A stretch of DNA of 52,007 nucleotides. It comes from a virus (taxonomy: Duplodnaviria > Caudoviricetes). The notes below the pieces were generated by a model. That model had not been told where the DNA came from. It ran no database searches and was given only the letters and a program-made list of their open reading frames with translations. The translations under genes were made by a program, and so were the position numbers. Positions 4,824-37,600 of this stretch are shown piece after piece; the first letter of the stretch is position 1; every line of letters starts with the position of its first letter. The stretch spans positions 1 through 52,007 of IMG/VR virus record IMGVR_UViG_3300042360_000367, one strand, 5' to 3'.

Positions 4824-4834
4824 CGTGGGCTTTC

Positions 4835-9096: not shown

Positions 9097-9105
9097 GGTC
9101 GGTCC

Positions 9106-10863: not shown

Positions 10864-10865
10864 GC

Positions 10866-13739: not shown

Positions 13740-13777
13740 GTTTCAGGCCGAGGGAAATCTTTGCATGCGCGTTCCCC

Positions 13778-13813
13778 AAAAGCGAAACCCGCCGCGGTTT
13801 CCCGGGGCGGGTT
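13778..13813 (-). terminator. Rho-independent terminator closing the early-left operon and cassette array
   Basis: Minus strand AACCCGCCCCGG-GAAA-CCGCGGCGGGTT followed by TCGCTTTT. Confidence 0.7.
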
Positions 13814-13967
13814 GATGGTGGAAATTTCAGGGCGAGTTCGCCCAACCAGTCAGTGCTGTCTAGCAGCAGTCACCCGGCACAGCCGGGAAGCGTGGGGCCT
13901 GGAAGGCCCGATGACGTGGCGCCCTTGCGCGGGCTGGAGGGATTCTGCACCCAACTTGGGGAGGGTG

Positions 13968-14333
13968 TCACCCTTCGCGCTTTCCCAACCCAGCCAGCGT
14001 GCGCCGGCTCGGCGCCTTGGGCCAGCGCTTGCTCAGCAGTTCCCACAGCCGCGTCAGGCCGGCGGCGTCTGTCAGCACCTCGCCATCGATCTCGGCGGCC
14101 CACTGGTCGCTGCGGTGCTGCGGGTCGCGCATCAGGCGCAGGATCACGGTCTTGCCGTTGATGCAGCCGCCCAGCCAGTCCCCATGCACCGGGGCCAGCG
14201 GCGGGTAAGCCGGGGCCGGGCCGGCGATGCTGGCGGCCTCCCGCGCCGCGTTTCGGCGCTTGTGTGCGCCTGGCGTTGCGTTGTAGGCGGCCCAGCGGCT
14301 GCGGGGCCTGTGCACACTTCGGAAGGTTGGCAT
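13968..14333 (-). CDS. Hypothetical protein, first gene after the cassette array in transcription order
   Basis: 121-aa ORF; its ATG overlaps the attI-like L box. Confidence 0.6.
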   Translation of the reverse strand: MPTFRSVHRPRSRWAAYNATPGAHKRRNAAREAASIAGPAPAYPPLAPVHGDWLGGCINGKTVILRLMRDPQHRSDQWAAEIDGEVLTDAAGLTRLWELLSKRWPKAPSRRTLAGLGKREG

Positions 14334-14348
14334 ATCTACGGGTTAGGC
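14330..14348 (+). other. attI-like simple recombination site at the array boundary
   Basis: GCATATC (reverse complement GATATGC, 6/7 to GTTATGC), 5-bp spacer TACGG, then G|TTAGGC; same L-5bp-R layout as attI; no attC hairpin upstream. Confidence 0.5.
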
Positions 14349-14349
14349 G

Positions 14350-14541
14350 TCAAGGCAGCACCTTCAGCGTGCTGGCGTCGTAGCACTTAAAGCCTTCCCA
14401 CGCCCAGGTGCCGCGCAGCCGCTTCCCACCCTTGGCTTCGCAGTCGGCCTTGGCCGTCACCGCGCCAGTAAGCGTGAGCGCAATGACGACCAGCGCCGCC
14501 ACAATGAATACAGCCTTCAGTTGCTCTCTGCCTGTCAGCAT
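14350..14541 (-). CDS. Cassette 1: small membrane protein
   Basis: 63 aa, one TM helix and a Cys pair; fills the space between the GTT site and attC1. Confidence 0.65.
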   Translation of the reverse strand: MLTGREQLKAVFIVAALVVIALTLTGAVTAKADCEAKGGKRLRGTWAWEGFKCYDASTLKVLP

Positions 14542-14544
14542 GAC

Positions 14545-14643
14545 GCCTAACCCTTCGCTCAGCGCGACCCCGAACGGCGGGGTCTACCGTTGCGCCCTCC
14601 AGCGCCTCAGCGCCGCTCGGGTCGCGGTAGCTATGCGTTAGGC
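14545..14643 (+). repeat. attC site 1
   Basis: GCCTAAC-CCTTC-GCTCAGCGCGAC...GTCGCGGTAGC-TATGC-GTTAGGC. Confidence 0.8.
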
Positions 14644-14889
14644 GCTCTTGGCTGCAAAGTATTGGCGCTGCCAGTACGGCCAACGAATGCTGAAGCAAAT
14701 TAAAAGGTGCAAAAGACCAGGCCAAGGCCCTAGCACTCCGTCGCCTGTAGCGAACCAAACGTTGGCAATTACGAGGTTTGCCCAGAAGGCGCGGTCTTCG
14801 GCGCTCGTTGGCTCCGCGTTCGCGCCTAACCCCTCGCTCAGCCCCCGACCTGCGTCGGCGTTGTGGCTTGGGCTCGCTTCGTCTTTCAT
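14638..14889 (-). CDS. Cassette 2: small membrane protein starting inside attC2
   Basis: AAGGAGG SD and ATG inside attC2; stop is the TTA at the crossover. Confidence 0.7.
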   Translation of the reverse strand: MKDEASPSHNADAGRGLSEGLGANAEPTSAEDRAFWANLVIANVWFATGDGVLGPWPGLLHLLICFSIRWPYWQRQYFAAKSA

Positions 14890-14928
14890 GGTCTCGCCTC
14901 CTTGTCGGGGTTAGCTCGAACGTTAGCC
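14824..14928 (+). repeat. attC site 2
   Basis: GCCTAAC-CCCTC-GCTCAGCCCCCGAC...GTCGGGGTTAGC-TCGAAC-GTTAGCC. Confidence 0.85.
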
Positions 14929-15204
14929 GGCTACCAGCACGCCACGGGTGCGCAGGTAGTGCAGCGCCGCGTATCCCTCGCTGTCCGGCTGCGCGGCGTG
15001 GTCCACGATCACGCCAGGGAAGTCGCGGCCCATCACGTTGCGCGGCTCCAGCCACGACATCGGGCGCACCACTAGGTCATCGCGGCCTAGCTTCTTCGCC
15101 AGTTCCTGCGGGTACGCGGTGCGGCTGTTGCACCACACAAAGACCGCTCCCACCGGGGCCTCGGTCATCTGGCGTGTCGTGGTTCCTGTTCCTCTGTCGC
15201 TCAT
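14923..15204 (-). CDS. Cassette 3: hypothetical protein
   Basis: ATG at 15204 after AAAGGAACGAGG; MSDRGTGTTTRQ...GVIVDHAA; stop at the crossover. Confidence 0.7.
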   Translation of the reverse strand: MSDRGTGTTTRQMTEAPVGAVFVWCNSRTAYPQELAKKLGRDDLVVRPMSWLEPRNVMGRDFPGVIVDHAAQPDSEGYAALHYLRTRGVLVAG

Positions 15205-15231
15205 CCTCGTTCCTTTCGCGCCGGACACGCC

Positions 15232-15332
15232 GGCTAACTCGTCGCTCAACCGGAAACCCCCGGCAGGGCAGCGCTCGCGCGCTTCGTCACTTGCAGTAGC
15301 TGCCGGGGTTTCCGGTTAGCTCTGCGTTAGGC
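15232..15332 (+). repeat. attC site 3
   Basis: GGCTAAC-TCGTC-GCTCAACCGGAAACCCC...GGGGTTTCCGGTTAGC-TCTGC-GTTAGGC. Confidence 0.85.
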
Positions 15333-15746
15333 CGCTTGGGCACTTGGCAGGTACTCGGCCGGCACGTCCCGCAGTTCGCTGGTGTCGATGGTGTAGCCGA
15401 CCCGCTCTGCCTTCCGGAACTTGTGCGAGTGCTCGGACCACTTGAATTTGTATTCGTGACCCGCAGGCGCCCCAACATGGCGCACAACAAGCATGCCGCC
15501 CGGTGTGCGCCGCACAATCACCACGCGGCCCGCGTCTTCTTCGTTGCCACTTCGCCAGCGCCGCACACGCACCATGCGGCACTGCGGCAGCGCAGCGTCG
15601 GCCTCGGTCTGCGCTTGGCGCACAGCGGCATAGGCGGCGCCGTGTTCGGCTTCCAGCCGCTTCAGCGTGTCCCTCGCTGCGGCAACTTCGGCGGCTTTGG
15701 CGCTCAGCGCGGCCTCAGCTTCGATCACTGTCTTTGGCTTCTTCAC
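15327..15746 (-). CDS. Cassette 4: hypothetical protein
   Basis: GTG start after GGAGAG; 139 aa; stop at the crossover. Confidence 0.7.
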   Translation of the reverse strand: MKKPKTVIEAEAALSAKAAEVAAARDTLKRLEAEHGAAYAAVRQAQTEADAALPQCRMVRVRRWRSGNEEDAGRVVIVRRTPGGMLVVRHVGAPAGHEYKFKWSEHSHKFRKAERVGYTIDTSELRDVPAEYLPSAQAA

Positions 15747-15774
15747 TGTTTGCTCTCCAAGGTTGTAGCGGGCG

Positions 15775-15894
15775 GCCTAACCCATCGCTCAAAGCCGACC
15801 CCAAGGGGCCGGCGGCTTGGTTTGTGCTCGTGTGTTCCGTGGTCATCGTTGCTCCTGTGCAGCCCCTTGGGGCGGTTCAGCTCGATCGTTAGGC
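15775..15894 (+). repeat. attC site 4
   Basis: GCCTAAC-CCATC-GCTCAAAGCCGACCCCAAGGGG...CCCCTTGGGGCGGTTCAGC-TCGATC-GTTAGGC. Confidence 0.85.
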
Positions 15895-16161
15895 CTTTTG
15901 CCGCCGCACTTCTGCAATGGCGTTCGCTGCGTCGTCAGCCTGCCGCGCATAGAACATCGACAGTTTCTGTGCTGCCTCGGCCAGCTTGCGCAGGTCGCGT
16001 CGAATGCGGCGCTCCATCGCTGTATCGGTTCCAGGCACACCATGCAAACCGTCGTTCTGGTGCGTGTCTAGCACCGCCGCCACGGCGTCAAAGGTACGCC
16101 GGGCCTCGGCTGCGTTTTGCAGTTCATCGGCCAGTTGTCCAAGACTCTTTGCCATCGTCAT
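15889..16161 (-). CDS. Cassette 5: hypothetical coiled-coil protein
   Basis: GGAGAGG SD; 90 aa; stop at the crossover. Confidence 0.7.
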   Translation of the reverse strand: MTMAKSLGQLADELQNAAEARRTFDAVAAVLDTHQNDGLHGVPGTDTAMERRIRRDLRKLAEAAQKLSMFYARQADDAANAIAEVRRQKA

Positions 16162-16178
16162 CCTCTCCGGCCACCAGG

Positions 16179-16282
16179 GCCTAACTACTCGCTGAACCCC
16201 GCGACCCGCTACGGCGGGCCGCTCCTGTGTTTCTGCCTACTCCGCAGCGCCGCAGCGGTCGCGGTTAGCTCGAACGTTATGC
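16179..16282 (+). repeat. attC site 5
   Basis: GCCTAAC-TACTC-GCTGAACCCCGCGACC...GGTCGCGGTTAGC-TCGAAC-GTTATGC. Confidence 0.85.
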
Positions 16283-16558
16283 AGCACCAACAGCCGCGTC
16301 CCACTCGCGCCGCAGCTTGTCCAGAATCTCGGCGTCGTGTGTGCTGAGCGGCTGACCCACGCGCTGCGCGAGATTGAAGGCCACATCGCTAAGCTGGCCG
16401 CCCACAGCCTTAGTGGCAGCGTGTCGCTTGTCGCAGCCGGCAATCGCCAGCGCCTCAACGCGCTGCGCAAACGCATGTACGGTGCGCCCGGTCGGTGCGC
16501 CTTCGGGAGCGCCGCGCGTTACGTCGCGCCATTCTCTGTTCGCAGTTTTCCTGTCCAT
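16277..16558 (-). CDS. Cassette 6: hypothetical protein
   Basis: ATG at 16558 after AGGAGA; MDRKTANREW...; stop at the crossover. Confidence 0.7.
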   Translation of the reverse strand: MDRKTANREWRDVTRGAPEGAPTGRTVHAFAQRVEALAIAGCDKRHAATKAVGGQLSDVAFNLAQRVGQPLSTHDAEILDKLRREWDAAVGAA

Positions 16559-16591
16559 CTTCCATCTCCTGTAGTGCGCCACCAGGGCGCT

Positions 16592-16676
16592 GCATAACTC
16601 GCGTTTCGAGCAGACGCCCAGCGGCGTAGCTCACTCCGGCAGCGCCACGCGGGCGCTGCTCAAACTATCGTTAGGC
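16592..16676 (+). repeat. attC site 6
   Basis: GCATAAC-TCGC-GTTTCGAGCAGACGCCC...GGGCGCTGCTCAAAC-TATC-GTTAGGC. Confidence 0.85.
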
Positions 16677-16678
16677 CC

Positions 16679-16870
16679 TCAAGGCAAGCGAACAAAAGTC
16701 GGCGCCGGGTACGGGACCGTTTTCCAGCCGATCCATTGCTTGTCGGGTGGGCTCTGCGCTTCGTTGTCCTTGTGGCCCAGAATCTGGTAGTCCGTTTCCA
16801 GGACCACATCGCCATAGCTGCGCAGCACTTTGCCGCCTTTTTCAATCAGGGTGTGGTAATACTCGGTCAT
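16679..16870 (-). CDS. Cassette 7: hypothetical protein
   Basis: 63 aa; GGAGA SD; ATG overlaps the stop of an attC7-encoded leader ORF (ATGA). Confidence 0.65.
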   Translation of the reverse strand: MTEYYHTLIEKGGKVLRSYGDVVLETDYQILGHKDNEAQSPPDKQWIGWKTVPYPAPTFVRLP

Positions 16871-16889
16871 TGCGTTTCTCCACCAACGG

Positions 16890-17010
16890 GCCTAACCCGT
16901 CGCTCAACCGCCGACCCATCACGGCGGGTGTCTTGGTCTGGGTTCGTTTGCTCTGTGGTCATCGTTTTTCCTTTGCGCCGTGCTGGTCGGCTTTAGCTCG
17001 AACGTTAGGC
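16890..17010 (+). repeat. attC site 7
   Basis: GCCTAAC-CCGTC-GCTCAACCGCCGACC...GGTCGGCTTTAGC-TCGAAC-GTTAGGC. Confidence 0.85.
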
Positions 17011-17259
17011 CCCAATACGCTCGCCCAGCGCCTTCAGCTCTGCCCACATGGGGTCGCCTTCGGACAGCGCCTTGCTCAGTTCGCCGCAGGCCATCGCGTA
17101 GTCCAGGCACAGCGCGCGAAGCCGTTCAATCTCTGCTGCGTCGGCCTCTACGCGGTCGGCAGCTTGGCGCGCACGGTCAACAAACTGGTGCAGCCACACC
17201 GCGTCCACTGGGAAAGGCACGGGCATGCGCAGCACGCCCAACAACATCACATCGCTCAT
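17005..17259 (-). CDS. Cassette 8: hypothetical protein
   Basis: 84 aa; 'AADRVEADAAEIERLRA' coiled coil typical of phage early genes; stop at the crossover. Confidence 0.7.
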   Translation of the reverse strand: MSDVMLLGVLRMPVPFPVDAVWLHQFVDRARQAADRVEADAAEIERLRALCLDYAMACGELSKALSEGDPMWAELKALGERIGA

Positions 17260-17282
17260 GTTCTCTCGCTCCGGTAAGAGGG

Positions 17283-17352
17283 GCCTAACCCCTCATTGCA
17301 GAGCCGACCCACGCCGGCAAGCCGGCGCGGTCGGCTGAATTAGGCGTTAGCC
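17283..17352 (+). repeat. attC site 8
   Basis: GCCTAAC-CCCTC-ATTGCAGAGCCGACC-CACGCCGGCAAGCCGGCGC-GGTCGGCTGAAT-TAGGC-GTTAGCC (70 bp). Confidence 0.85.
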
Positions 17353-17583
17353 GGCTTGCAGGTCGGCGCCGTAGTCGCGCGCCAAGCAGTCGCGGTGCCC
17401 ATAGCTGACGGCGTGAGCGTTGTCGTACAGCTCTCCGTTCTCGCGTCGGTACTCGCTCCCGAACACGTACTTGAACGCCTCGCTCATCGGTTTGCCACAG
17501 CGTTCGCAGCCGCCCCAGTAATCCGAGCCGCGCCCGGTTCCTTCAATGCGCCGCACAGTGCGGCCGGTCGGCACACCCATCAC
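17347..17583 (-). CDS. Cassette 9 gene A: small Zn-binding-like protein
   Basis: CERC...HRDC motifs; stop at the crossover. Confidence 0.65.
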   Translation of the reverse strand: MMGVPTGRTVRRIEGTGRGSDYWGGCERCGKPMSEAFKYVFGSEYRRENGELYDNAHAVSYGHRDCLARDYGADLQAG

Positions 17584-17792
17584 AGCACCACGGCGGTTTG
17601 CTTGTGCGCCAGGGCGATCAAGCTGCCGGCGCGCACAGTGCGTTCAACGCTGCCGGCCAGCACAAAGCGAACGGTCTTTGCAGCAACAACCACACGATCA
17701 ATCTCGCTGCCGTCCCAGTACACCAAGCCGCTTTCGAGCTTGCTGGCTTCGATTGCGGGGAACTGTTGGCCTTTGATGTTGACGGTGTTCAT
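17580..17792 (-). CDS. Cassette 9 gene B: hypothetical protein
   Basis: 70 aa; GGAG SD; stop overlaps the start of gene A. Confidence 0.65.
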   Translation of the reverse strand: MNTVNIKGQQFPAIEASKLESGLVYWDGSEIDRVVVAAKTVRFVLAGSVERTVRAGSLIALAHKQTAVVL

Positions 17793-17893
17793 GTCTTGCT
17801 CCGGTTGGTGTTTCGATGGGTGTTATTGAATCACATAAACCAGCGCAGCACAAGCCCCTTCGCACAAGTTTTTGCATCACGTATACTCGCCGC

Positions 17894-18061
17894 ATGGAAG
17901 AACCAAAAAACCATGGTGGCCGCCCACCCGTGCCGCCTGAACAGCGCCTGGTGCAGCGCTCCATTCGCCTCACGCCTGCGCAGTGGGCCAAGATCGACGC
18001 GCAGGGGCTTGCGTGGCTTCGTGCGCTCATAGATCGTGCCCGCACTCCACCAGCCGGCTAA
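17894..18061 (+). CDS. Cassette 9 gene C: ribbon-helix-helix (Arc/CopG-like) regulator
   Basis: MEEPKNHGGRPP...VQRSIRLTPAQWAKI..GLAWLRALID; stop TAA lies in R'' of attC9 (canonical orientation); TATACT ends 6 nt before the ATG. Confidence 0.65.
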   Translation: MEEPKNHGGRPPVPPEQRLVQRSIRLTPAQWAKIDAQGLAWLRALIDRARTPPAG

Positions 18062-18121
18062 CCCTTCACTGAACGCGGACCCGTCACTGCGTGCCGGTCC
18101 GCTTTAGTTCAAACGTTAGGC
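18056..18121 (+). repeat. attC site 9
   Basis: GGCTAAC-CCTTC-ACTGAACGCGGACC...GGTCCGCTTTAGT-TCAAAC-GTTAGGC (66 bp). Confidence 0.85.
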
Positions 18122-18387
18122 GGCTCGTGGCGGGCCTGCAGTTGGCACTTCAGGCAAAGCGGCGCCATCTGCCGAACCGGCTTGCCGCGCGCCGTGCGCG
18201 CCTCCCACTCCATCACATCGCCGCTCAATTCCTGCGGGTAGCGCCACAGCCCGCACTTGCCGCACTGCTTCTGCCGCAGCCCGGCCTTGTGCTGCGCCTC
18301 GGCCCACTCGTGCCAGGCCAAGTAGCCCTCGGGCGCTTGGTCGCCGGGCTTGTAGTGCGCCTGTTCCAAGATGCAGGCAACCTTCAC
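18109..18387 (-). CDS. Cassette 10 gene A: Zn-ribbon protein
   Basis: 'PEGYLAWHEWAE..QCGKCGLW...CLKC'; reads a few codons into attC9. Confidence 0.65.
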   Translation of the reverse strand: MKVACILEQAHYKPGDQAPEGYLAWHEWAEAQHKAGLRQKQCGKCGLWRYPQELSGDVMEWEARTARGKPVRQMAPLCLKCQLQARHEPPNV

Positions 18388-18626
18388 GGCTCAATCCTCG
18401 CGTCACACTCGAATACGATGAATGGCGGCGGGGCCATCCAGACTTGCAGCGGAAACGTGCTGCGGTCGGTGCGGCGCAGGCAGTCTTCGCAGCCCTCGCG
18501 CCAGTCGCCGGGCTCGGGGTCGTAGCCTGCGCACCGCGCCACGTCTGCGGGCAGCCGCCTAACTCCTCGCTGAACCACCGGACCCGCGTCGGCGGCCGGC
18601 TTTGTCTCGTTTGCTTGCGTCATCAC
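18384..18626 (-). CDS. Cassette 10 gene B: Cys-rich small protein starting inside attC10
   Basis: AAGGAGG SD and GTG/ATG inside attC10; 'DVARCAG..CEDCLRR..C'. Confidence 0.7.
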   Translation of the reverse strand: MMTQANETKPAADAGPVVQRGVRRLPADVARCAGYDPEPGDWREGCEDCLRRTDRSTFPLQVWMAPPPFIVFECDARIEP

Positions 18627-18659
18627 GCCTCCTTGGTCCGGTTAGCTCGAACGTTAGGC
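18557..18659 (+). repeat. attC site 10
   Basis: GCCTAAC-TCCTC-GCTGAACCACCGGACC...GGTCCGGTTAGC-TCGAAC-GTTAGGC. Confidence 0.85.
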
Positions 18660-18971
18660 CCTCAAGGCTCGCAAAGCAGGGCACGCCTGCTCGCACACTT
18701 CGGCCAGCACAGCCGCCGCGATGTCGTCAAACGCTGTGTCTGATCTGCTCACGCGCCAGTGCACCGCACCCAAGGCGGCGCGCAACATTTGAATCTCCAT
18801 GTCGCGGTGTGCCAGCTCGGCCGCAATCGCACTCTTTGCGTGCAAGCCTTCCCCCGTCATCGCGCTCATGTGGCGCACAAAGAGTTCACCCTGGGCAACA
18901 TGGTCACGCTCCGCATACAGCGGGCCTAACCCCTCGCTCAGCCCCCGACCTGCACTGTCCCCGCCGCTCAT
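18654..18971 (-). CDS. Cassette 11: phage hypothetical protein
   Basis: MSGGDSAGRGLSEGLGPLYAERD..HMSAMTGEGLHAKSAIAAELAHRD; ATGA overlap with the upstream gene; stop at the crossover. Confidence 0.7.
   Translation of the reverse strand: MSGGDSAGRGLSEGLGPLYAERDHVAQGELFVRHMSAMTGEGLHAKSAIAAELAHRDMEIQMLRAALGAVHWRVSRSDTAFDDIAAAVLAEVCEQACPALRALRA
18924..18953 (+). repeat. Half attC (R''/L'' arm only)
   Basis: GCCTAACCCCTCGCTCAGCCCCCGACCTGC identical to the first 30 bp of attC2; no L'/R' arm follows. Confidence 0.75.
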
Positions 18972-20098
18972 GGCTGGCCTTTCAGGGCGGCGCCCTTGGG
19001 TGCGGGGCTGTAGTCCGGGCGCTTCCATGTGCCGCGAATGACGCTGATGCAGTCGTCGCTGTCGAGCATGTAGTCGCCCTCGGTGACGCAGTGGTCGTCC
19101 TCGGCCTTGATGGCGACGCACAGGCGCTCGCGCTCGGCTGCTAGCGCCTCCGCCAGCCCCTGCTGCACGGCATCGCGCGGGGGCTGCTCTGCCAGAGCGC
19201 CGGCCGCAAAGACACCCCCGGCCGCATCCTCAAGCGCGCACAGTTCCGCCATTTCGGCGGCGCTGCGCTCCGGCTGCTCTCGGCGCACACGGCCTGCATT
19301 CGGGCCGCCAGAAATAAGCCGCGACCGCTGCGCGGGTGTCAGGGTTAGGGGCTGCTCTGCGCGCTCGGCTGGCGTGGGGTGGGTGGCGGCTAGCTTGCGC
19401 AGTTTGCTGGCGAACAAGTAAGCGTTCTCAAGAAGATGCGCAGCCCGAGTGCACACCTCGCCGCGACGAGAGCTACCGCCGCGTAGATCGGCTGCCGTTT
19501 TCAGCCAAGCCGCAAGCTCGCCATCGTCGGGCAGTTCAGCGGGCGCCGGCTGCTCTTGTGCGGCTGGCGTGGGGTGGGTGGCGTAGAACGGGCGCCAGCC
19601 TGCGGCGCGCGCCTCGGCTTCAGTCAGCGGCGCGGGCGGCTGCGGCCCTTTGTGGAAGGCGGGGGCGTAGAAGTGGGGTGGCTCGCTGTCACGAACCCAC
19701 CACGCGGGTGCCGGCTGCTCTTGTGCGGCTGGCGTGGGGTGGGTGGCGGCAAACCGGGAAAGCATCAGGCGCTCAATGGCCCTGGCTACGGCTCGGTCGT
19801 ATTCCTGCGGTGCCATGTTGGCGCACATGATTTCGCTGCACGCCTCGTCAATCTCGGCATCCCGCAGGATGGCCGGCGCCGGCTGCTCTTGTGCGGGCGC
19901 TGCTGAAGGACACACCTGATGCCCGTTGCGAGCCCAAACGCAATCCTTGGGCGAGATTGCGCTTTGCTGCTCTTGTGCGGGCGGGTGGGCGTAGAGGGGC
20001 GTTCCCTCGGGCCGCGGCGCACCGTTCCACTCAAGCGTGTAGCGGCTCATGTGAACCTCGGCGACAAACGCCACCGGCCCGGCCTCGGTCTTGCTCAT
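18968..20098 (-). CDS. Modular early protein with repeated ATHPTPAAQEQPAPA linkers (Ead/Ea22-style mosaic)
   Basis: Start MSKTEAGP at 20098 overlapping the upstream stop; repeated linker peptides. Confidence 0.7.
   Translation of the reverse strand: MSKTEAGPVAFVAEVHMSRYTLEWNGAPRPEGTPLYAHPPAQEQQSAISPKDCVWARNGHQVCPSAAPAQEQPAPAILRDAEIDEACSEIMCANMAPQEYDRAVARAIERLMLSRFAATHPTPAAQEQPAPAWWVRDSEPPHFYAPAFHKGPQPPAPLTEAEARAAGWRPFYATHPTPAAQEQPAPAELPDDGELAAWLKTAADLRGGSSRRGEVCTRAAHLLENAYLFASKLRKLAATHPTPAERAEQPLTLTPAQRSRLISGGPNAGRVRREQPERSAAEMAELCALEDAAGGVFAAGALAEQPPRDAVQQGLAEALAAERERLCVAIKAEDDHCVTEGDYMLDSDDCISVIRGTWKRPDYSPAPKGAALKGQP
19545..19748. repeat. 39-bp perfect direct repeat (19545-19583, 19710-19748) with partial copies near 19366, 19878 and 19967
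   Basis: GCCGGCTGCTCTTGTGCGGCTGGCGTGGGGTGGGTGGCG. Confidence 0.85.
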
Positions 20099-20481
20099 GA
20101 TGCTCTCCGTTCTTCGTTGGCGGCCATCTGCGCCACGGCGAAGATGCTGTTGGGGGTGGTGGTAATGACCTGGCGCAGGGCGCGCAGCTTCTTCTTGTAG
20201 CGGCGCGTGCGCTCCGCATTCGTGAGCGTGCCGGGCCGGCGCGCGTCGGGCTGATTGCCCAGGGCGTACACGGCGCGCAGTTGGTCGCGCGTGTCTTCCT
20301 GCTTGCGCACCCAGCGGGCGATGTAGATGCAGCGCGTCAGTTGCACGCCCTTGTGCATCGTTGAGATTGAGGCTGACACCCTGAACTGGTCCGCCGCAGG
20401 CCAGAAGGCCTGCACCTCGGATCGCGTCATGGGGCCATGCTCGGCCAGAAGCGCGCGGATGGCTGCGTAGCTGGGTTTCAC
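20095..20481 (-). CDS. Hypothetical protein, winged-HTH-like
   Basis: GTG start overlapping the upstream TGA; 'IRALLAEHGPMTRSEV'. Confidence 0.6.
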   Translation of the reverse strand: MKPSYAAIRALLAEHGPMTRSEVQAFWPAADQFRVSASISTMHKGVQLTRCIYIARWVRKQEDTRDQLRAVYALGNQPDARRPGTLTNAERTRRYKKKLRALRQVITTTPNSIFAVAQMAANEERRAS

Positions 20482-21740
20482 GCCACCTCCAGCGCATCGA
20501 CGGCGGCGAACCAGCGGGCCCACCATTCCGGGCCCATCTTGGGGTGCGTGGGGAAGCGGCTCGCGCGGGCTTCGGCGGCCAGGGCGCGCAGGGTGTCGGC
20601 GGGCGTGGGCTCAGGTGTCAAGGATTCCTTGACAGTTGCCGGCTCCGGGTTCACCTCGGCCAGCCCCACGGCCTCGCCCGGGTCTGCGCGGTCGCCGCCC
20701 ATCTCGGCTGCAGTGGTGTGCGGGGCAGCGTCGGGATCGTCGGCGCGGATCGGGTCGCCCGGGTCGGTGGCGATGGCGTCCAGGGTGTCGCCCAGGGCCA
20801 GCAGGTTCGGCAGCGCGGCGGCCTTCTCGCGTGCCGTGGCGGCTGCGCAGCTGGTCTCGAACTCCGCTTGAAGCTCTGCCGCGCGCTTCAGGTCCAAGGC
20901 GGCCAGCCGGTCGCTCTCGGCTTGCTTGGCCGCAGCCTCCGCAGCCCGTGCCGCGGCCTCACGCGCGGCCAGTTCCTCGGCGGCCTTGCGGATGGCGGCG
21001 GCCTCGGCAGCGATGCGGCGTTCCTGCTCGGCGAGCTCGGCGGCCCGGCGCTCGTTTTCCAGCCTGATGGCCTCCTGCCGCGCCGCCTCGGCCTCGCGCG
21101 CCGTAGCCTGGGCGTGCAGCACCTGCATCTGTTCCAGCGCGCGGGCCTTGGCGCCGGCCAGGGCTTCGGCACGGGCGGCGTCGGTGTCGCTCACGTCGCT
21201 GTCGGTCAGCATCTGGATGCCCCGGGCGATACGCTCGGCCGTCATGCCCACTTCCTGGCAGCGCAGCAGGTAGCCGGCGATGGTCTGCAGGCGCGCGGCG
21301 TGGCGCTCCTGGGCCTCGCGCTCGATGCGCTCTTTCTCGGCCTTCTCAGCAGCCCGGCGCTGCTCGTCGGCCTTGATCTGCGCGTCTATCGGCGCCTCCA
21401 GGGCTTCGATCTCGGCCGTGATGCGCGCGGCCTCGGTGTCGATCAGCTTGCCGTAGGCCAGCGCCGGGGCCTTGAAGTCCTTGCGGCGCTTCTCCAGCGT
21501 CGTGCGCAGCGTCACGCAGCGCAGGCGGTCGGCGCGGGCCGCTTGGTCGCCCTTCGTGGTCTTCAGGTCGTAGGTCTTGCCGGCCAGTTCCGCCTTCAGC
21601 GCGGCCAGGCCTGCCTCGGTGGCGCTGTACTTCACCAGCGGGGTGCCGTTGACGATCTGCGCGCGGTCCACCACCTCGTCAGCCACTTCGGCGCGGCGGG
21701 CGATGGTGTCCACGATCTCGGGAAGGGGGGTGTCAAACAC
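20478..21740 (-). CDS. Coiled-coil phage protein of the recombination module
   Basis: GTG at 21740 after GGAG; 'LEKRRKDFKAPALAYGKLIDTEAARI..IEALEAPIDAQIK'. Confidence 0.7.
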   Translation of the reverse strand: MFDTPLPEIVDTIARRAEVADEVVDRAQIVNGTPLVKYSATEAGLAALKAELAGKTYDLKTTKGDQAARADRLRCVTLRTTLEKRRKDFKAPALAYGKLIDTEAARITAEIEALEAPIDAQIKADEQRRAAEKAEKERIEREAQERHAARLQTIAGYLLRCQEVGMTAERIARGIQMLTDSDVSDTDAARAEALAGAKARALEQMQVLHAQATAREAEAARQEAIRLENERRAAELAEQERRIAAEAAAIRKAAEELAAREAAARAAEAAAKQAESDRLAALDLKRAAELQAEFETSCAAATAREKAAALPNLLALGDTLDAIATDPGDPIRADDPDAAPHTTAAEMGGDRADPGEAVGLAEVNPEPATVKESLTPEPTPADTLRALAAEARASRFPTHPKMGPEWWARWFAAVDALEVA

Positions 21741-21942
21741 GGGTGTCGCTCCACTGTTCGTTCGTGAGATCCGGCCGCGGGTCGCGGTAGCCGTCCACAC
21801 GGCACCGCTGCTGCGGCAGGAGGATTGAGGGGTGGGCCCGGGGCCGCTTCACGGCGCACTGCGGGCAGTTCACGCCGTACTTGGCGCGCAGTGCCTTGCG
21901 GTGGTCGTCAAGGGCCCGGAAGCCTTCGATGGCGTCACCCAC
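21733..21942 (-). CDS. Small Cys-containing hypothetical protein
   Basis: CPQC motif; tightly packed in the operon. Confidence 0.55.
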   Translation of the reverse strand: MGDAIEGFRALDDHRKALRAKYGVNCPQCAVKRPRAHPSILLPQQRCRVDGYRDPRPDLTNEQWSDTRV

Positions 21943-21945
21943 GGC

Positions 21946-22704
21946 CTAGAACTCCGCAGGCGCGAGGGCGCGCTTCGGCTCCACGGGCGCCGTGGGCAAA
22001 TCCCAGGGGGCGTCCATGTCGGGGGTGGTGGGGGCGGCAGGGGCGGCCGGGCCGGCGATGCGGTGCGTTCGGTCGAACTCGGCGATCACCTCGGCGTAGT
22101 ACGCACGCGCATGCTTCGCCTTCTCGACCATCGCGGCCTCAATCGCCATGTCGCGGTCAATCGCCCAAGTCGTCACGCGCAAGTGCTCTGCGATGTGCGA
22201 GACAACGTGCAGCGGCAGCGGCTCAAAGTTGCCGATCAGTTCCTTCGGCGTGTCAACCAAGCAGTAGGCGACGCGGAAGCGCGGCCGGTTGTAGAGGCGC
22301 ATGTAGACGCGGCCCTGAAACTCGTACAGCTTCCGTTGCGCTTCGGCCACGTCATCTACGCTGATCGGGTAGGTCGCGGCAGACCATGCCGACTTGATGT
22401 CTACGACCTCGGCCGGGTCCAAATGGTCGCACTCGCCTGTGAAAAACTCATCTTCAAGGCGCTGCTTGTTCTTCACCACCGACCGGCCAAAGACGCGATT
22501 GAACAGCGCCGATGATTCGGACTCAACAAGGTTCCCCTTCTCAAGTTTCTTGTCCGAAACCGCGAAGTCAACGCCCAGGATTTCCTGCGCGGCCATGTTG
22601 CGGATTGCAGTTTTCGCGCCGACAGACAGAACCTCGCTCTTGGACTTCGGCTCGGTCATCAGCAAGCCAAAGCTGCTGGCGCGGAATAGAACATTGCGCT
22701 TCAT
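21946..22704 (-). CDS. YqaJ/lambda-exonuclease-like nuclease
   Basis: 'FRASSFGLLM', 'KGNLVE', 'TGECD...VVDIKS' (PD-(D/E)xK), 'YEFQGRVYM'; adjacent to ERF. Confidence 0.75.
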   Translation of the reverse strand: MKRNVLFRASSFGLLMTEPKSKSEVLSVGAKTAIRNMAAQEILGVDFAVSDKKLEKGNLVESESSALFNRVFGRSVVKNKQRLEDEFFTGECDHLDPAEVVDIKSAWSAATYPISVDDVAEAQRKLYEFQGRVYMRLYNRPRFRVAYCLVDTPKELIGNFEPLPLHVVSHIAEHLRVTTWAIDRDMAIEAAMVEKAKHARAYYAEVIAEFDRTHRIAGPAAPAAPTTPDMDAPWDLPTAPVEPKRALAPAEF

Positions 22705-23471
22705 CACTGCGCCCCCGCCGCGCGAAGCGCCGCACCGCGGGCCTGCACGGCTGCGGCGAACAGCTTGTAGGCTTCCACGTCGCCAGCGCCGCGGAAGTGC
22801 TTGGCGCCGTCCTTGGACACGCGATCCAGTTCCTGCAGGCTCTGCGCCAGCGCAGCGCGGCCGGACCAAACTTCCAGCGGGTCAGAGCCGCCGCCGTCAG
22901 CGCCGCCCGCACCGTCATCGTCAGCATCGGTCGCGGCAAGGCCCAGGATGGCCGTGGCGGTGTAGCGCTCCAAGTAGGTCTTGGTGCTCCCTCGGGCCTG
23001 GATGGCGTTGCGGCCAGGGCCGGTGTCAGGTGCGCCGCCCATTGAGACTGACTCGACGTGCCCCAGCGCGTGCTTGAGGTAGCACGTCACTTCGAGCCAG
23101 TCCTTCTCGTCCTTCGTCAGCTTCCAGCTGATGCTGAGGCCGTGCTTGGACAGGGCCGGCGTCGTGGCGCTCACCACGTCAAACAGGTTCGCATGCTTGC
23201 CGCCCTGCAGGGGACCGCTGGCGATGGTCTTGCTCTTGATGATGGTCACGGCCTCGGACTTGAAGCCGGCCACGGCGGCAGCGTGCGCGCGGGCGGCCTC
23301 GGCGGCTTCGTGGCGCTCCTTCAGGTCCATCAGCTTTTCGACATAGGCCAAGTCGGCGCCGCGCTCCACTGCGATCTGCAGCAGTTGCGCGGGCGATGCC
23401 GCCACCAGCGCGCGGGGCTGCTGCACAACCTGCGCCTCTGCGGTGGGGATGAGTTCAAGGGTGTCGTTCAC
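22704..23471 (-). CDS. erf: ERF-family single-strand annealing protein
   Basis: 'PALSKHGLS', 'VTCYLKHALGHVES', 'QARGSTKTYLERYT..AILGL...DDDG'. Confidence 0.85.
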   Translation of the reverse strand: MNDTLELIPTAEAQVVQQPRALVAASPAQLLQIAVERGADLAYVEKLMDLKERHEAAEAARAHAAAVAGFKSEAVTIIKSKTIASGPLQGGKHANLFDVVSATTPALSKHGLSISWKLTKDEKDWLEVTCYLKHALGHVESVSMGGAPDTGPGRNAIQARGSTKTYLERYTATAILGLAATDADDDGAGGADGGGSDPLEVWSGRAALAQSLQELDRVSKDGAKHFRGAGDVEAYKLFAAAVQARGAALRAAGAQ

Positions 23472-23481
23472 GGGGTTTCCT

Positions 23482-23754
23482 TCAGAGAGCCCGTGCCAAA
23501 GCGGCCAGGGCGGTGGAGATGCGGCGGCCGATCAGGCGCCAGCGGGTGATGGGGTGGGGGTTGCGGTACGGTCCTTCCACAGCGCCGGAAGACAGCAGCA
23601 ACTCGCCCAGCGGGGTGGTGGCCGTGTCGCGCTCGGCCTGCTTGGCGTCCAAGTGCTGCTCGGTCAGCGCGCGGGTCATGTGCGGGTAGTGCGAGGGTTC
23701 GACGTTGCAATCGAACGCGGCCAGCAGTTCTGCGGGAGTAGCGACGCGGCGCAT
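23482..23754 (-). CDS. Hypothetical protein
   Basis: MRRVATPAELLAAF...; coupled to neighbouring genes. Confidence 0.55.
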   Translation of the reverse strand: MRRVATPAELLAAFDCNVEPSHYPHMTRALTEQHLDAKQAERDTATTPLGELLLSSGAVEGPYRNPHPITRWRLIGRRISTALAALARAL

Positions 23755-23933
23755 CACGCGCCCCCCGTCAGCACGTTGATGGCGTGCACGCCCAGCGCCG
23801 TGCCGCAGCCGATGGCCAGGAGCCACCGGGCAATGCACGCCAGGGCCTGCTCGGCGGCTTCCTGGGCGCGGGCGTTGTAGGCGTTCATCGCCTGCGCGGC
23901 CTCGTCGGCTTCGCGGATCTCGGCGGGGCTCAT
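23754..23933 (-). CDS. Small membrane protein
   Basis: MSPAEIREAD... with a C-terminal hydrophobic helix. Confidence 0.55.
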   Translation of the reverse strand: MSPAEIREADEAAQAMNAYNARAQEAAEQALACIARWLLAIGCGTALGVHAINVLTGGA

Positions 23934-24199
23934 GCGGCACCACCCTTCTCGCGCTCGACCAGCATGGCGTCGGCCATCACAAAGGACAGGCGGGCAACAA
24001 CAGCAGCCAACTCCGGGAACTGGCCTTCTGACGAGGCGTGAGAGCCCGCCAGCAGCGTCGTCATCGCCTTGATGGCTGCGTAGTCCCGCAGGCTCATGCC
24101 GGGGTCCACAGTCACAGCTTCGCGCTCGCCATAGTCGTGGTTGAACTGCGTGCCGAGTTGAGGGAACGCCGGCCCGCCGGTGTTGATCGGCGCGCTCAT
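23930..24199 (-). CDS. Conserved phage early protein
   Basis: 'TGGPAFP...GMSLRDYAAIKAM...ADAML' motif common in proteobacterial phages. Confidence 0.7.
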   Translation of the reverse strand: MSAPINTGGPAFPQLGTQFNHDYGEREAVTVDPGMSLRDYAAIKAMTTLLAGSHASSEGQFPELAAVVARLSFVMADAMLVEREKGGAA

Positions 24200-24483
24200 A
24201 CGCCCCTCCGCTCGACCATCGCGTACAGCGTGGAACCCGGGCCGTACTGGCGCACGTAGTCGGCCATCGCGGCACCAAGGCGCACGCTGTTCACCGTGTC
24301 CGCGATGCGCCACGCGCAGGCCAGCGCCTGCACGAAGCTGCCGCCGTAGGCCTGCATCGCGGCCAGCGTCGTGCGGCGCTCGGCCTCAGTCATGGAGATC
24401 CACACCGGCATGCGCTTGGCGTCACCCACGGCAACGTCGGCGCGCTGGGCCGGCGTCAGCAGGGAGTCCAGCAGGGCGCTCAC
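24196..24483 (-). CDS. Hypothetical protein
   Basis: 'MQAYGGSFVQALACAWRIAD..N..RL'; coupled starts and stops. Confidence 0.65.
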   Translation of the reverse strand: MSALLDSLLTPAQRADVAVGDAKRMPVWISMTEAERRTTLAAMQAYGGSFVQALACAWRIADTVNSVRLGAAMADYVRQYGPGSTLYAMVERRGV

Positions 24484-24782
24484 GCTGCCACCTCGCCCAG
24501 CTTCGCCAGCTCACGGGTGCAGTACGCGATGTTCGCGGCCTTGGCCGCCTGCCGCGTGTACTCGGTGTAGTAGTCGCACTCCGGGTAGGCCGGGTCGAAG
24601 CCCTGCTGCGCTTCGGTCAGCGCAGCCTGCAGCCGGGCGCGCTTGTCGGCCACCGCCTCGGCGGCCATCGGGATGTAGTGGGCGCGCTGACGGGCCCGCT
24701 CCGCAGCGTGGCGGGCCTTGATGCCGTCAACGATGGCCTGCAGGTCAGCTTGGACCGCAGGCGGGGCAAAAGTCGTTTGCAC
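24480..24782 (-). CDS. First gene of the early-left operon, hypothetical
   Basis: GTG at 24782 after GGAG; downstream of the OL operators. Confidence 0.6.
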   Translation of the reverse strand: MQTTFAPPAVQADLQAIVDGIKARHAAERARQRAHYIPMAAEAVADKRARLQAALTEAQQGFDPAYPECDYYTEYTRQAAKAANIAYCTRELAKLGEVAA

Positions 24783-24821
24783 TTCGCGTCTCCAACGCCG
24801 GGATGGCGTGAGACGCAAATC

Positions 24822-24860
24822 TAGCAAACTACTTTGCTATCTGCAAGCAAGATTTTTTGC
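24822..24860. promoter_or_regulatory. OL operators and PL region
   Basis: GCAA-N6-TTGC at 24824-24837 and 24847-24860. Confidence 0.75.
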
Positions 24861-24894
24861 CTGCCCCTAGATTGGCCTTGCGGCCAAAGTCAGC

Positions 24895-25395
24895 TCACCG
24901 GCAATTCGTCGTCACCATGTTGCCGATGGCGGTGCTGGTGCAGTTCACCGTCTGCCTTGGCGGCGGCGTGTTGGCGCGCAGGGATTCCCAGAATGCACGG
25001 TTGGCCTCCGCGCTGGCCTGCTGCCTCTGCAAGTTCATGCGCTCAATCTCCAACGCATAGCGCAAGTCGATGTCACGGCCTGGCACGTCCGGGCGCTCAA
25101 AGGTGAACTGCTGGGTAAGGCCCAGCAGGCGTAGATCGGCCGTCAGCACGTCGATGCTGGCCGTGGCGCCGCTGGCCCACTTCACGCGCGTTCCCTGCAG
25201 CCGTTTCGTGCCGGCCCGGCGGTCCTCGTCGGTGACTTGGTACTCCAGCGTCACCGGGGTGTATCCGAACAGCTGCGAGCCCTGGTACACGGCCGCGCCG
25301 GGCGGGTCCGACTGGTAGGTGACTTTCAGCACGGTGCTGCAACCCCCCGCCAGCAGCGCGGCAGACAGCAGCGCCAGAAGGCGCTTCTTCATCAC
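24895..25395 (-). CDS. Lipoprotein with a PEGA-like domain (lysogen-expressed; possible superinfection exclusion)
   Basis: Signal peptide with lipobox-like LAGGC; 'SDPPGAAVY....GYTP'; downstream of cI. Confidence 0.7.
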   Translation of the reverse strand: MMKKRLLALLSAALLAGGCSTVLKVTYQSDPPGAAVYQGSQLFGYTPVTLEYQVTDEDRRAGTKRLQGTRVKWASGATASIDVLTADLRLLGLTQQFTFERPDVPGRDIDLRYALEIERMNLQRQQASAEANRAFWESLRANTPPPRQTVNCTSTAIGNMVTTNCR

Positions 25396-25415
25396 GAGAT
25401 CTCCCTGTTGTGAGT

Positions 25416-26024
25416 TCAGATTTCCGAGCGCTCGATCAGCGTCATCACTGCCAGGATTCGCAGGCCATGCGTCTCCGAGTGCAAGCTGACGTAGGCGTCA
25501 TCAAGCGCCTGCGCGTGCCAGGTGCCGCCAGCACCCTGGGCGTAGCGGCGCACGTAGCGCCCACCCTCTTTGTCCTCCACCAGCACGCACTGGCGAGGCC
25601 GGGCTACATCGGCCCGCTTAAAGACCATCTTCGTGCCCGCAGGCACTTTGTCTCCCAACGCTCCATCCGGCATCATCACGGCAAATTCGCTGGGCAGTGC
25701 TCCCGACTGCATCAACAACTCCCATGTCACGATGTCGGGAATTGTTACTGCCTCGGGGCTCAGAAGCTGAGCCTGCCCGGGAATACGGCCTCCCACATTC
25801 TGGGGATGGCCTTCAGATTTCGGTGAGAAATCTCCGCGCAAAAGTGCGTCCGCGCTAGTTCTCATCACTCTGGCGAGTGACGCCAGATAACGCGGGTTGT
25901 GCACGTTGCCGGCCATCAGGTTCTCGATGTTCTGACGTGACGTGCCCACCAGCCTCGCCATCTGCGGGGCGTTCAGTTCTTCGGCCTGCATGAACTGCAG
26001 CACCTGTTCGGCGAGTGTTTTCAC
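25416..26024 (-). CDS. cI: CI-like repressor (XRE HTH plus degenerate S24 domain)
   Basis: 'LNAPQMARLVGTSRQNIENL...LASLARVM' HTH; divergent from the cro-like gene; GTG start at 26024. Confidence 0.85.
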   Translation of the reverse strand: MKTLAEQVLQFMQAEELNAPQMARLVGTSRQNIENLMAGNVHNPRYLASLARVMRTSADALLRGDFSPKSEGHPQNVGGRIPGQAQLLSPEAVTIPDIVTWELLMQSGALPSEFAVMMPDGALGDKVPAGTKMVFKRADVARPRQCVLVEDKEGGRYVRRYAQGAGGTWHAQALDDAYVSLHSETHGLRILAVMTLIERSEI

Positions 26025-26087
26025 GCAAAGCATTTTGCGGCGCTTGCAAGCAATCTTGTTTGCCTCTAGACTGGCAAACAAATTTGC
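26025..26087. promoter_or_regulatory. OR operators between cI and cro
   Basis: GCAA-N6-TTGC at 26025-26038, 26050-26063 and 26074-26087. Confidence 0.8.
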
Positions 26088-26099
26088 ACCCAGGCCGCT

Positions 26100-26387
26100 A
26101 TGCGCTACATCACCGTCAGTGACCTCCTCGCCGATTACTTCAACGGCAGCCCTACCGAACTTGCCGCCGCGCTTGGTGGCGATGTCAAGCGGCAGAACGT
26201 GGAGTATTGGCGGCTGCACAACCGCGTGCCCGCTCAGCATCGGCCGCCGATCGAACGGTTGACGAGGGGCAAGGTTACCTGCGAACGCTTGTCGCGTGAT
26301 GGTGCCATCTGGTCGCGCGTGCCGGATGACTCATGGCCGCACAAGGACGGCCGCCCCTGCCTGGACGTGGCCAAGGCCGTCGCCTGA
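26100..26387 (+). CDS. cro: Cro-like (YdaS-type) regulator
   Basis: 'GSPTELAAALG..VKRQNVEYW....VPA....IERLTRGKVTCERL'. Confidence 0.8.
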   Translation: MRYITVSDLLADYFNGSPTELAAALGGDVKRQNVEYWRLHNRVPAQHRPPIERLTRGKVTCERLSRDGAIWSRVPDDSWPHKDGRPCLDVAKAVA

Positions 26388-26467
26388 CCCATGCCCCCAC
26401 CTGTCTCCAGCGTGCACTGGCCGGCGCCTATCGCCGGGCGCTCTCCTCCCTTGCGCCGCACGCTTTG

Positions 26468-26502
26468 CCCCGGCTGGCTGATGCCGGCCGGGGGTTTTTC
26501 TT
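26468..26502 (+). terminator. tR1-like intrinsic terminator
   Basis: CCCCGGCTGGC-TGAT-GCCGGCCGGGG then GTTTTTCTT. Confidence 0.65.
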
Positions 26503-30442: not shown

Positions 30443-30731
30443 GCGGGCCTCGATGCCCCGCGCGGACGCCAAGCAGACACCGGCGCGCGGGACACGACAC
30501 CTCTACCGGGGGCAAGACGCGGAAGCAGAGGGGCGGGGTGGCGAAGGCAGCGCCCCAGCGTCGAGCGGCTACCGGGTCTATGTGGCTCCAGACGGCACGT
30601 AGTGAAGGACTCATCCGGCAGGCTGGGTCCGTCCACCAAACGGCACCAACGAAGAAAGCATTTGGCTGTTTCTCTATGAGCGCTACTACCTCACCTACGC
30701 ACGCGACGCGCCGGCCGGCAGGGGGCACGCT

Positions 30732-36365: not shown

Positions 36366-36599
36366 GTGAGCGACCCCCTGATGAGCGCTGACGAGATCCG
36401 CCGGGTGGCCGGCGGCTACGTGCAGCCGTCGAAGCAACTGGCCGAACTGAAGCGCCAAGGCTTCTGGCGCGCACGCCGCGCCCGGCTGACTGGCGAGGTG
36501 ATCCTTGAGCGCGCACACTACGAGGCCGTGTGCAGCGGCCAGGATGCGCGCCCCTCGCTGGCGCGACCCGAGCACACGCCCACACTGAGGCCCGCATGA
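36366..36599 (+). CDS. xis: Excisionase-like protein (DUF4224 type)
   Basis: 'MSADEIRRVAGGYVQPSKQLAEL..QG'; stop overlaps the int start. Confidence 0.65.
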   Translation: MSDPLMSADEIRRVAGGYVQPSKQLAELKRQGFWRARRARLTGEVILERAHYEAVCSGQDARPSLARPEHTPTLRPA

Positions 36600-37600
36600 C
36601 CCGATCATCCGGCCTGCCGCGGCGGGTCTACCTGAAGCACGGCCGCTACTGGTTCGTGGCCGTCGACAACAAGTGGCACAGCCTGACGCGCGAGCGCGAG
36701 GGCCTGCCCGCCATGTTCCGCGCGCTGGCCGCCATCACCGAGCAGGCGCGCGCCGGTGACATGATGCCGGCCGTGGTGTCGCGCTGGCTGGAAGAAAAGG
36801 CGGCTGCAGGCGATTGGTCCGAAGACACCAAGACCGACATGGACCGGGTGGCCGCCGCCATCTCCAAGCGCTTTCTGGACTTCCGGCCCTACCAAGTCAC
36901 CACGCCGGTGTGCGCCGAGTACCTCAAGACGTACCTGAAGAAGCCGCGCACCTACAACCTGCACCGCAGCGTGTTGCGCCAGGTGATGGCCGCGGCAGCG
37001 CGCGAGGGGCTGCGCGAGGGGCACAACCCCATCGACAACATCCCGCAGCGCAAGCTGGCCAAGCGCGTGCGCATCGTGACGCCGGCCGAGATCGACGCCA
37101 TGGCCGCGGCGCTGATGAAGGCCAAGCGCGGCGGCCCGGCCCACGTCCGCATGCTCGGGCTGTGCCTGAAGACCGGCCAGCGCATCGGCGACGTGCTGAA
37201 GTTCCGCGCCCAGGACTGCACCGACGAGGGCGTGATCGTTGACCAGGGCAAGACCGGGGCCCCGCTGGTGGTGGAGTGGGACGCCGAGCTCAAGGCGCTG
37301 GTGGACGAGTGCTTTGCAGGCCGGGACCGCATCGGGTTCCTGCTGGTGCAGAGCACCGGCCAGCCCTACCGCTACTCGGGCGTGCGCAGCGCCTGGGTGC
37401 GGGCCATGGAGCGCGCCGGCATCGAAGACCTGCACATCCATGACCTGCGCGGCGAAGCCGGTGCGCGCCTGGCCGACATGCTGGGCCCCTACGCCGCACA
37501 GCTGCTGCTGGGCCATGCCAGCGTGAAGATGACCGAGCAGTACATCGCAGGCAAGACGCGCAAGCGCGCCAAGCCCGCGCCCATGAAAAAGAGCGTCTAA
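36596..37600 (+). CDS. int: Phage tyrosine integrase
   Basis: 'TGQRIGD', 'HDLR', 'LLGH', 'TEQY'; N-terminal arm-binding 'LPRRVYLKHGRYWF'. Confidence 0.92.
   Translation: MTRSSGLPRRVYLKHGRYWFVAVDNKWHSLTREREGLPAMFRALAAITEQARAGDMMPAVVSRWLEEKAAAGDWSEDTKTDMDRVAAAISKRFLDFRPYQVTTPVCAEYLKTYLKKPRTYNLHRSVLRQVMAAAAREGLREGHNPIDNIPQRKLAKRVRIVTPAEIDAMAAALMKAKRGGPAHVRMLGLCLKTGQRIGDVLKFRAQDCTDEGVIVDQGKTGAPLVVEWDAELKALVDECFAGRDRIGFLLVQSTGQPYRYSGVRSAWVRAMERAGIEDLHIHDLRGEAGARLADMLGPYAAQLLLGHASVKMTEQYIAGKTRKRAKPAPMKKSV

Follow-up and report, generated by a model that had tools for sequence, protein, structure and literature searches.

We analysed an array of integron-type gene cassettes in the phage record IMGVR_UViG_3300042360_000367 (Caudoviricetes); the window, as used below, is this entire record of 52,007 bases, which is about 81% complete. 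Profile searches against PHROG and Pfam identified genes for capsid, portal, terminase, Erf, exonuclease, helicase, lysis and a phage integrase, and the sequencing runs that match the window best are labelled lake water, with no RNA dataset listed among them. No integron integrase (IntI) was detected on the contig with either TIGR02249 or a profile built from 52 IntI sequences, and the 334-aa phage integrase matched neither. Counting the window and five relatives together (G000-G005), none yielded an IntI, one of the relatives being at least 90% complete. The window is a temperate phage without an integron integrase. Its array, at the distal end of the leftward early operon, consists of eleven units, c1 to c11, and starts at an entry site that contains the start codon of a short gene, which we call the anchor gene (Table 1).

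The array contains 10 complete attC sites of 66-121 nt, with an eleventh present as a half site. The complete sites carry the R'' and R' core boxes and lie within the range of 57-141 bp given for attC sites in PMC3053210. Their bottom strands fold into hairpins whose L'' arm contains an extra base, as judged with an extra-base model of our own. This model fitted the plus strand better than the minus strand in 9 of the 10 sites, with c1 tied. The main open reading frame (ORF) lies on the minus strand in all eleven units, the exception to this orientation being one small plus-strand ORF in c9. A TAA formed by R' provides the stop in 8 of the 11 units, while a ribosome site and start codon lie inside the attC loop in c2, c4, c7 and c10. 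In c7 a leader begins in the loop at 16962 and its stop overlaps the ATG of the ORF; in c10 a second minus-strand ORF (18109-18387) has its stop inside the attC of its neighbour. The c11 gene starts in the half site (18924 to ~18955, lacking the R' arm), which encodes its N-terminus, and the phage gene upstream of it ends with a stop that overlaps the c11 start. A consensus scan of 13600-26500 gave two promoter-like sites, neither in an attC, and a terminator count at the level of shuffled sequence.

Table 1. Positions of the array units and of associated features in the window
Feature	Position	Strand	Remarks
Anchor gene, 121 aa	13968..14333	-	start codon inside entry site; no PHROG, NCBIfam or Pfam family; 169 homologues
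attI-like entry site	14330..14348	+	L-box-like GCATATC, 5-nt spacer, G|TT at 14342/14343
c1	14343..14637	+	ORF 14350-14541 (-), 63 aa; attC 14545-14643
c2	14638..14922	+	ORF 14638-14889 (-), starts in attC loop, weak coding score; attC 14824-14928
c3	14923..15326	+	ORF 14923-15204 (-), 93 aa; attC 15232-15332
c4	15327..15888	+	ORF 15327-15746 (-); leader ORF from 15846 in attC loop; attC 15775-15894
c5	15889..16276	+	ORF 15889-16161 (-); attC 16179-16282
c6	16277..16670	+	ORF 16277-16558 (-); attC 16592-16676; GTTATGC variant
c7	16671..17004	+	ORF 16679-16870 (-); attC 16890-17010
c8	17005..17346	+	ORF 17005-17259 (-); attC 17283-17352
c9	17347..18115	+	ORFs 17347-17583 (-) and 17580-17792 (-); 55-aa ORF 17894-18061 (+); attC 18056-18121
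c9 promoter-like site	17859-17887	+	
c10	18116..18653	+	ORF 18384-18623 (-), starts in attC loop; attC 18557-18659
Terminal unit c11	18654..18971	-	105-aa ORF, phrog_34533
Early-left operon	18968..26024	-	exonuclease, Erf, HTH (helix-turn-helix) repressor-like gene; points into array from far end
Phage integrase, 334 aa, not IntI	36596..37600	+	PF00589 and phrog_1

Several observations concern single genes. The 55-aa ORF of c9 (region 17780-18061) is the one plausible forward gene of the array, and the promoter-like site may give internal transcription; in the Atlas it lies closest to small viral proteins (0.96), and there are fainter leads to CcdA-, MobC- and NikA-like proteins. The c9 module is 77% similar to one in locus L002. 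The c3 protein begins with a GTGTTT run (15204-15170), which may resemble a decayed P-loop. For the anchor protein the best Atlas score was 0.78, below the useful range. Elsewhere in the window, a 3803-aa protein (40581-51992) with methyltransferase-like and ART-PolyVal domain matches has its start close to the end of the contig and is perhaps truncated. Rfam gave no match within the array and a Betaproteobacteria-1 RNA at 30455-30577 (RF02932, 62.7 bits), which fits a betaproteobacterial host; a tRNA search of the window found none, and a comparison with GenBank phages returned a single 66-nt match and nothing else. In a complete related phage (L003, G002:C1:29497-29946) an integrase lies ~1 kb beyond the anchor gene, and the array thus sits between the recombination genes and int.

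Cassette ends and cassette movement

The sequence-only reading of this stretch had proposed that the sequence at each G|TT crossover is the reverse complement of the R'' at the far end of the same cassette. We recovered all eleven pairs at the same positions and with the same lengths (11, 9, 10, 10, 8, 10, 9, 10, 11, 11 and 9 nt for c1 to c11). These sum to 108, compared with a permutation mean of 72.5, and 28 of the 39,916,800 possible pairings reach 108 (exact p = 7e-7). Restricted to c1-c10, the match lengths add up to 99 for own ends and to 60 for the ends as assembled. The signal is confined to positions 5-11; at positions 12-16 there is none (10/55 matches, p = 0.97). The strict core-box consensus is present in 8 of 11 units at each end, and the deviating units c3, c6 and c9 depart from GTTRRRY and, complementarily, from RYYYAAC at their own far end. 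Bottom-strand folding of the cassettes circularised in silico gave the same picture: own-end pairing summed to -310.3 kcal/mol versus -262.2 kcal/mol as assembled, and beat shuffled pairing, with 2 of 500,000 permutations reaching the own-end value. The own end ranked first, ties included, in 8 of 10 cassettes (c2 being a flat tie), second in c3 and fifth in c5.

For comparison, arrays were retrieved with one 17-nt attC motif from viral contigs and bacterial genomes, and one detector was applied to both. The viral set holds 127 unique cassettes from 42 loci, 9 of them from the window, and the bacterial set 156 cassettes from 48 loci; for the latter, the input was limited to the first 70 loci exceeding 1 kb. 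Own-end pairing exceeded as-assembled pairing in 134 of the 156 bacterial cassettes and, among viral cassettes outside the window, in 89 of 118. For the same attC type, own-end matches had a mean length of 9.4 nt (viral set) or 11.3 nt (bacterial set). The complementarity is therefore generic, since bacterial chromosomal arrays and other viral cassettes share it and the bacterial matches are longer. Because the inverted ends belong to the cassette body, they would survive any mode of movement and cannot alone prove circles; being symmetric, they are also silent on which attC travels with the gene. Complementary ends mark how a cassette is constructed, not its last movement. The further proposal that the ends indicate units that once existed as circles holds in part: these are integron-type cassettes that move at G|TT, as other evidence shows, but the complementarity by itself does not prove circles. 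Circles are the established IntI intermediate according to PMC3053210 and PMC4889954, and circular intermediates are likely here.

Evidence for movement comes from relatives. One of them, G006, carries an array of 19 units that follows another type of entry site than in the window, and c2 (285 nt), c3 (404 nt) and c6 (394 nt) are 100% identical there from TT to G, with c3 placed before c2 and the breakpoints of this swap at G|TT. In another locus, L001, c3 stands behind another first cassette, next to the same entry site as in the window; in both G006 and L001 the left neighbour of c3 is another than in the window. c1 is the first cassette in G006 too, where the c11 half site comes after another body, one out of frame with its leader. 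Across 195 records we found 13 pairs of near-identical bodies, 7 of them with different left context; these 7 share 1-4 letters left of the junction, and the right attC is kept (at least 90% identity) in 6. One cassette occupies the entry site in L005, and in L010 it stands behind an attC. c3 also occurs as a piece spanning 14920-15333 in four sequencing runs, and its listed flanks in two of them (X2 and X6) are unlike those in the window.

Entry site and gene polarity

Entry-site loci were retrieved by similarity of the anchor protein, not by the DNA site, and 39 of 40 were scored, the gene start being missing in L436; in some cases two loci represent one contig present in two collections. 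The distance from the anchor start codon to GTT is exactly 8 nt in 38 of the 39 loci; GTT is followed by 32 different first cassettes or sequences. The left half is identical over 32 nt in twenty-two loci, which between them show 18 different right sides and 8 different R' hexamers that share only TT. Conservation stops at G|TT. An inverse-core-like box to the left of the variable 5-nt spacer reads GCATATC, GCATATT or, in L418, GCATAAC, and the start codon makes up three of its bases. No empty entry site was found among the 39 loci. By comparison across these sequences, the site appears to behave like an attI. Each unit has the form TT-body-attC-G. Units retain the attC on their right, exchange neighbours at G|TT and are taken up at a single, fixed position.

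A second type of entry site, with CTA and an A/C-rich run before GTT, was seen in L042, L043, L056, L061, L064, L066 and L378, where it begins other integrase-less phage arrays. On the reverse strand of L002, two attC arrays of the same polarity (4166-6225 and ~8350-14750) flank the anchor gene, and one attC sequence is repeated in them about four times.

The reversed orientation of the genes extends to the wider viral set. Judged by the longest ATG ORF, with ties excluded, 97 of 119 viral cassettes are antisense to the attC, compared with 20 of 154 in the bacterial set. A codon model trained on the window, which is less reliable for bacterial cargo, gave antisense ORFs in 112 of 126 and 56 of 156, respectively. 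Testing for a frame open to R'' was uninformative in the viral set, with counts of 85 (reverse) and 88 (forward) out of 127. A bottom-strand ribosome site and start codon were present in 48 of 64 long viral attCs, compared with 25 of 139 bacterial ones. Long ORFs past the far end are co-directional with the cassette genes in 36 of 38 cases; of 68 flanking ORFs, 48 were scanned and 37 match PHROGs, spanning 25 of 30 loci and including many structural and recombination functions.

Two other accounts of the polarity were rejected. If the attC sites were read on the minus strand, the ORFs would have the normal orientation; this is ruled out by the extra-base fit and by which attC travels with a body. 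Flipped host cassettes would predict bodies in both polarities, and no whole body was found in both among 186 viral and 258 bacterial bodies. What remained of that comparison was one 136-nt partial minus match, and the single minus pair within the viral set was traced to a site called on the other strand by the detector.

Source of the recombinase

We give a probability of about three in four to the explanation that this is a phage-borne attC cassette array with a fixed attI-like entry site and genes facing the early operon, rearranged by an external integron integrase. In such a system, IntI would bind the folded bottom strand, excise a unit as a circle with its own ends paired and reinsert it at the entry site. 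The crossovers at G|TT are compatible with IntI acting on attC in single-stranded form. The enzyme would most likely come from the chromosomal integron of a Burkholderiales host, co-induced with the prophage by the SOS response, or alternatively from an IntI-carrying phage in the same cell. Transcription would enter the array from the far end, so that no cassette promoter (Pc) would be needed; long attC loops would supply the ribosome site and start codon, and R' the TAA stop. Homologous exchange inside the attC arms would be a second, lesser route that yields chimeric sites.

IntI matches were present in all 10 bacterial genomes with the attC motif, in 8 of them above the cut-off. A CTGT-N8-ACAG sequence, which we take to be a LexA box, lies upstream of intI in 4 of 5 bacterial genomes; no host attI site was located with confidence beside the five intI genes. 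Among viral loci, 52 encode IntI relatives, and 34 of 45 near full-length phage-borne IntIs fall on one branch (97/94, midpoint root), apart from 7 bacterial rows. Several of these viral contigs (L440-L491) share an entry site ending GAATTTAA|GTT, and CTGT-N8-ACAG was missing from the 250 nt upstream of the match in 45 of 46 phage-borne IntIs.

The cargo of viral and host arrays barely overlaps. Of 186 viral cassette bodies, only 4 have same-strand matches among the 258 bacterial-genome bodies, and two phage-like contigs account for three of these, whereas 14 of the 186 have relatives of at least 100 nt in loci with phage-borne IntI, up to 90% identical. PHROG matches were obtained for 28 of 76 reversed cassette ORFs. 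The cassettes of relatives include DNA methyltransferases, RNA ligases and HNH nucleases, which are plausibly counter-defence genes. A c3 homologue, 73% identical, lies in a phage gene cluster (L394) with no 5' attC, while on its 3' side the contig breaks off; conversion of phage genes into cassettes is suggested by this one example. A phage-like contig labelled Roseateles sp. (L149) carries a c8 homologue in a cassette as well as a cassette identical to one in the viral locus L067, and the genome it is assigned to encodes two IntIs, though the binning may be wrong. Another locus, labelled Sulfuritalea sp. (L174) and belonging to a genome that encodes IntI, has a reversed array beside lysis genes and is likely a prophage in a host with the enzyme.

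That the integrase comes mainly from co-resident IntI-carrying phages is a variant that shares the probability of the explanation above, and we regard it as possible though rather unlikely. The mostly single branch of the viral IntI loci speaks for it, as do the cassette gene families that they share with integrase-less arrays. The window attC arms are clearly closer to host chromosomal attCs than to phage-IntI ones in 6 of 10 cases, a comparison biased by a host set retrieved with the window motif, and the entry sites of the phage-IntI loci differ in sequence from that of the window; the tree includes only 7 bacterial rows and is rooted at its midpoint. We keep host IntI as the first choice and phage IntI as a close second. 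It is improbable that shuffling proceeds mainly by homologous recombination between hairpins, with Erf and the exonuclease acting as in T4-type phages and the attC likeness being a relic. Erf and exonuclease genes do lie upstream, chimeric attCs and body swaps exist, and exchange between the hairpin repeats of T4-type phages is described as yielding mini-circles without an integrase (PMC2839356), but first cassettes at the entry site have only GTT in common, the changed junctions share only 1-4 letters, and whole units are identical from TT to G.

It is very improbable that the phage encodes the enzyme itself, be it as the 334-aa integrase, as the anchor protein or in the portion of the genome that the contig lacks. 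The incompleteness of the contig and the tight linkage of the anchor gene to the site would suit it. However, the integrase lacks an IntI profile match, G016, a record that is complete and carries such cassettes, gave no match to PF00589 or a tyrosine recombinase, G006 carries the same cassettes at a different entry site, and the anchor protein is without a family and seemingly cassette-borne in L437. It is extremely improbable that the array is a piece of a host's chromosomal integron, acquired in one capture event and passive since then: the attC arms do resemble Burkholderiales chromosomal attCs, and such captures are described in PMC9892861, but host cassettes run forward where those of the window are reversed, the gene pools barely meet, and order and first cassette vary among relatives. 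The entry-site comparison largely refutes it.

A number of observations weigh against an array rearranged by an external integrase. In G006, c4 is a 98% identical unit with a chimeric right attC arm, c1 and c7 have different attCs (the c7 body being identical), the c5 attC serves two other bodies and thus three in all, and unit g10 has mismatched ends; such chimeric attCs and body swaps would reflect homologous exchange inside attC arms. Part of the entry-site conservation arises because the site overlaps a start codon, and L437, where the anchor gene appears cassette-borne, lacks the site. The missing part of the contig could hold an enzyme gene. Arrays beside phage-borne IntIs are of mixed polarity (22 forward and 20 reverse by longest ORF), and relatives of the viral cassette genes are commoner beside phage-borne IntIs than in host arrays, which speaks for a phage source of the enzyme. 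The counts are not independent, as loci overlap and several come from one genome. No self-joined circle junction was present among the joints listed (15 + 3) across six runs, contigs being prone to drop rare forms.

Relation to known integrons and phage repeats

Integrons are known as bacterial tools. Chromosomal integrons are reported to store anti-phage genes (bioRxiv 10.1101/2024.07.02.601686), and the first making of cassettes is described as an open question (PMC8618304, PMC4889954). Phages of the kind studied here appear to exploit integron recombination to handle accessory genes of their own while sparing themselves the cost of the enzyme. More tentatively, and with less than even confidence, we propose that temperate phages of Burkholderiales have a cassette economy of their own, in which phage genes would become reversed cassettes with starts in attC loops, drawn from a separate pool and entering a phage-owned attI through a borrowed integrase. 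If so, new cassettes would arise in these phages, and their formation could be caught there; the c3 gene, found both free and as a cassette, and the c5 attC, found with three genes, are concrete cases for cassette birth. The complementarity of the ends is itself ordinary; what matters most is the setting in which it occurs.

The sedentary integrons on the chromosomes of Burkholderiales (Rubrivivax, Roseateles and relatives) resemble the array in their attC arms, extra-base polarity and own-end complementarity. They differ in having intI, in their forward ORFs (132 of 147, two phage-like loci excluded), in longer cassettes (median 600 versus 417 nt) and in sharing almost no genes with it. The attG sites of Loot et al. 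(bioRxiv 10.1101/2022.09.11.507474), as described there, are similar in that IntI inserts cassettes at GWT outside an integron, and the entry site may have begun as a site of this type. Unlike the attG sites in that account, the window-type site is kept across many phages, is reused for at least 32 first cassettes and has an L-box-like left half. The promoter early stem-loops (PeSL) of T4-type phages (Arbiol et al. 2010, PMC2839356) likewise separate small early genes by hairpin repeats, with expression signals and modular shuffling. According to that description, however, promoter-terminator units are exchanged between repeats, whereas attC sites are exchanged at one nucleotide in the window, whose repeats, by the consensus scan, do not each carry an early promoter and a terminator stem-loop.

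With 10 attC sites and no IntI match on the contig, the array is a cluster of attC sites lacking an integron integrase (CALIN). It lacks two features of a complete integron, an intI gene beside the array and ORFs on the attC top strand read from a Pc at the attI end, yet it appears to work like an integron. Qi et al. (2023, PMC9892861) reported 17 CALINs in 10,705 phage genomes, and 5 of 6 phage attCs recombined with IntI1. Those clusters likewise lack intI and include methyltransferase cassettes, as do relatives of the window; antisense ORFs, a shared conserved entry site and shuffling between relatives do not figure in the parts of that report consulted. Clusters of attC sites in phages are already published. 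Our literature search, with most subscription journals outside its coverage, turned up no publication that deals with reversed cassettes in phages or with an attI conserved among them.

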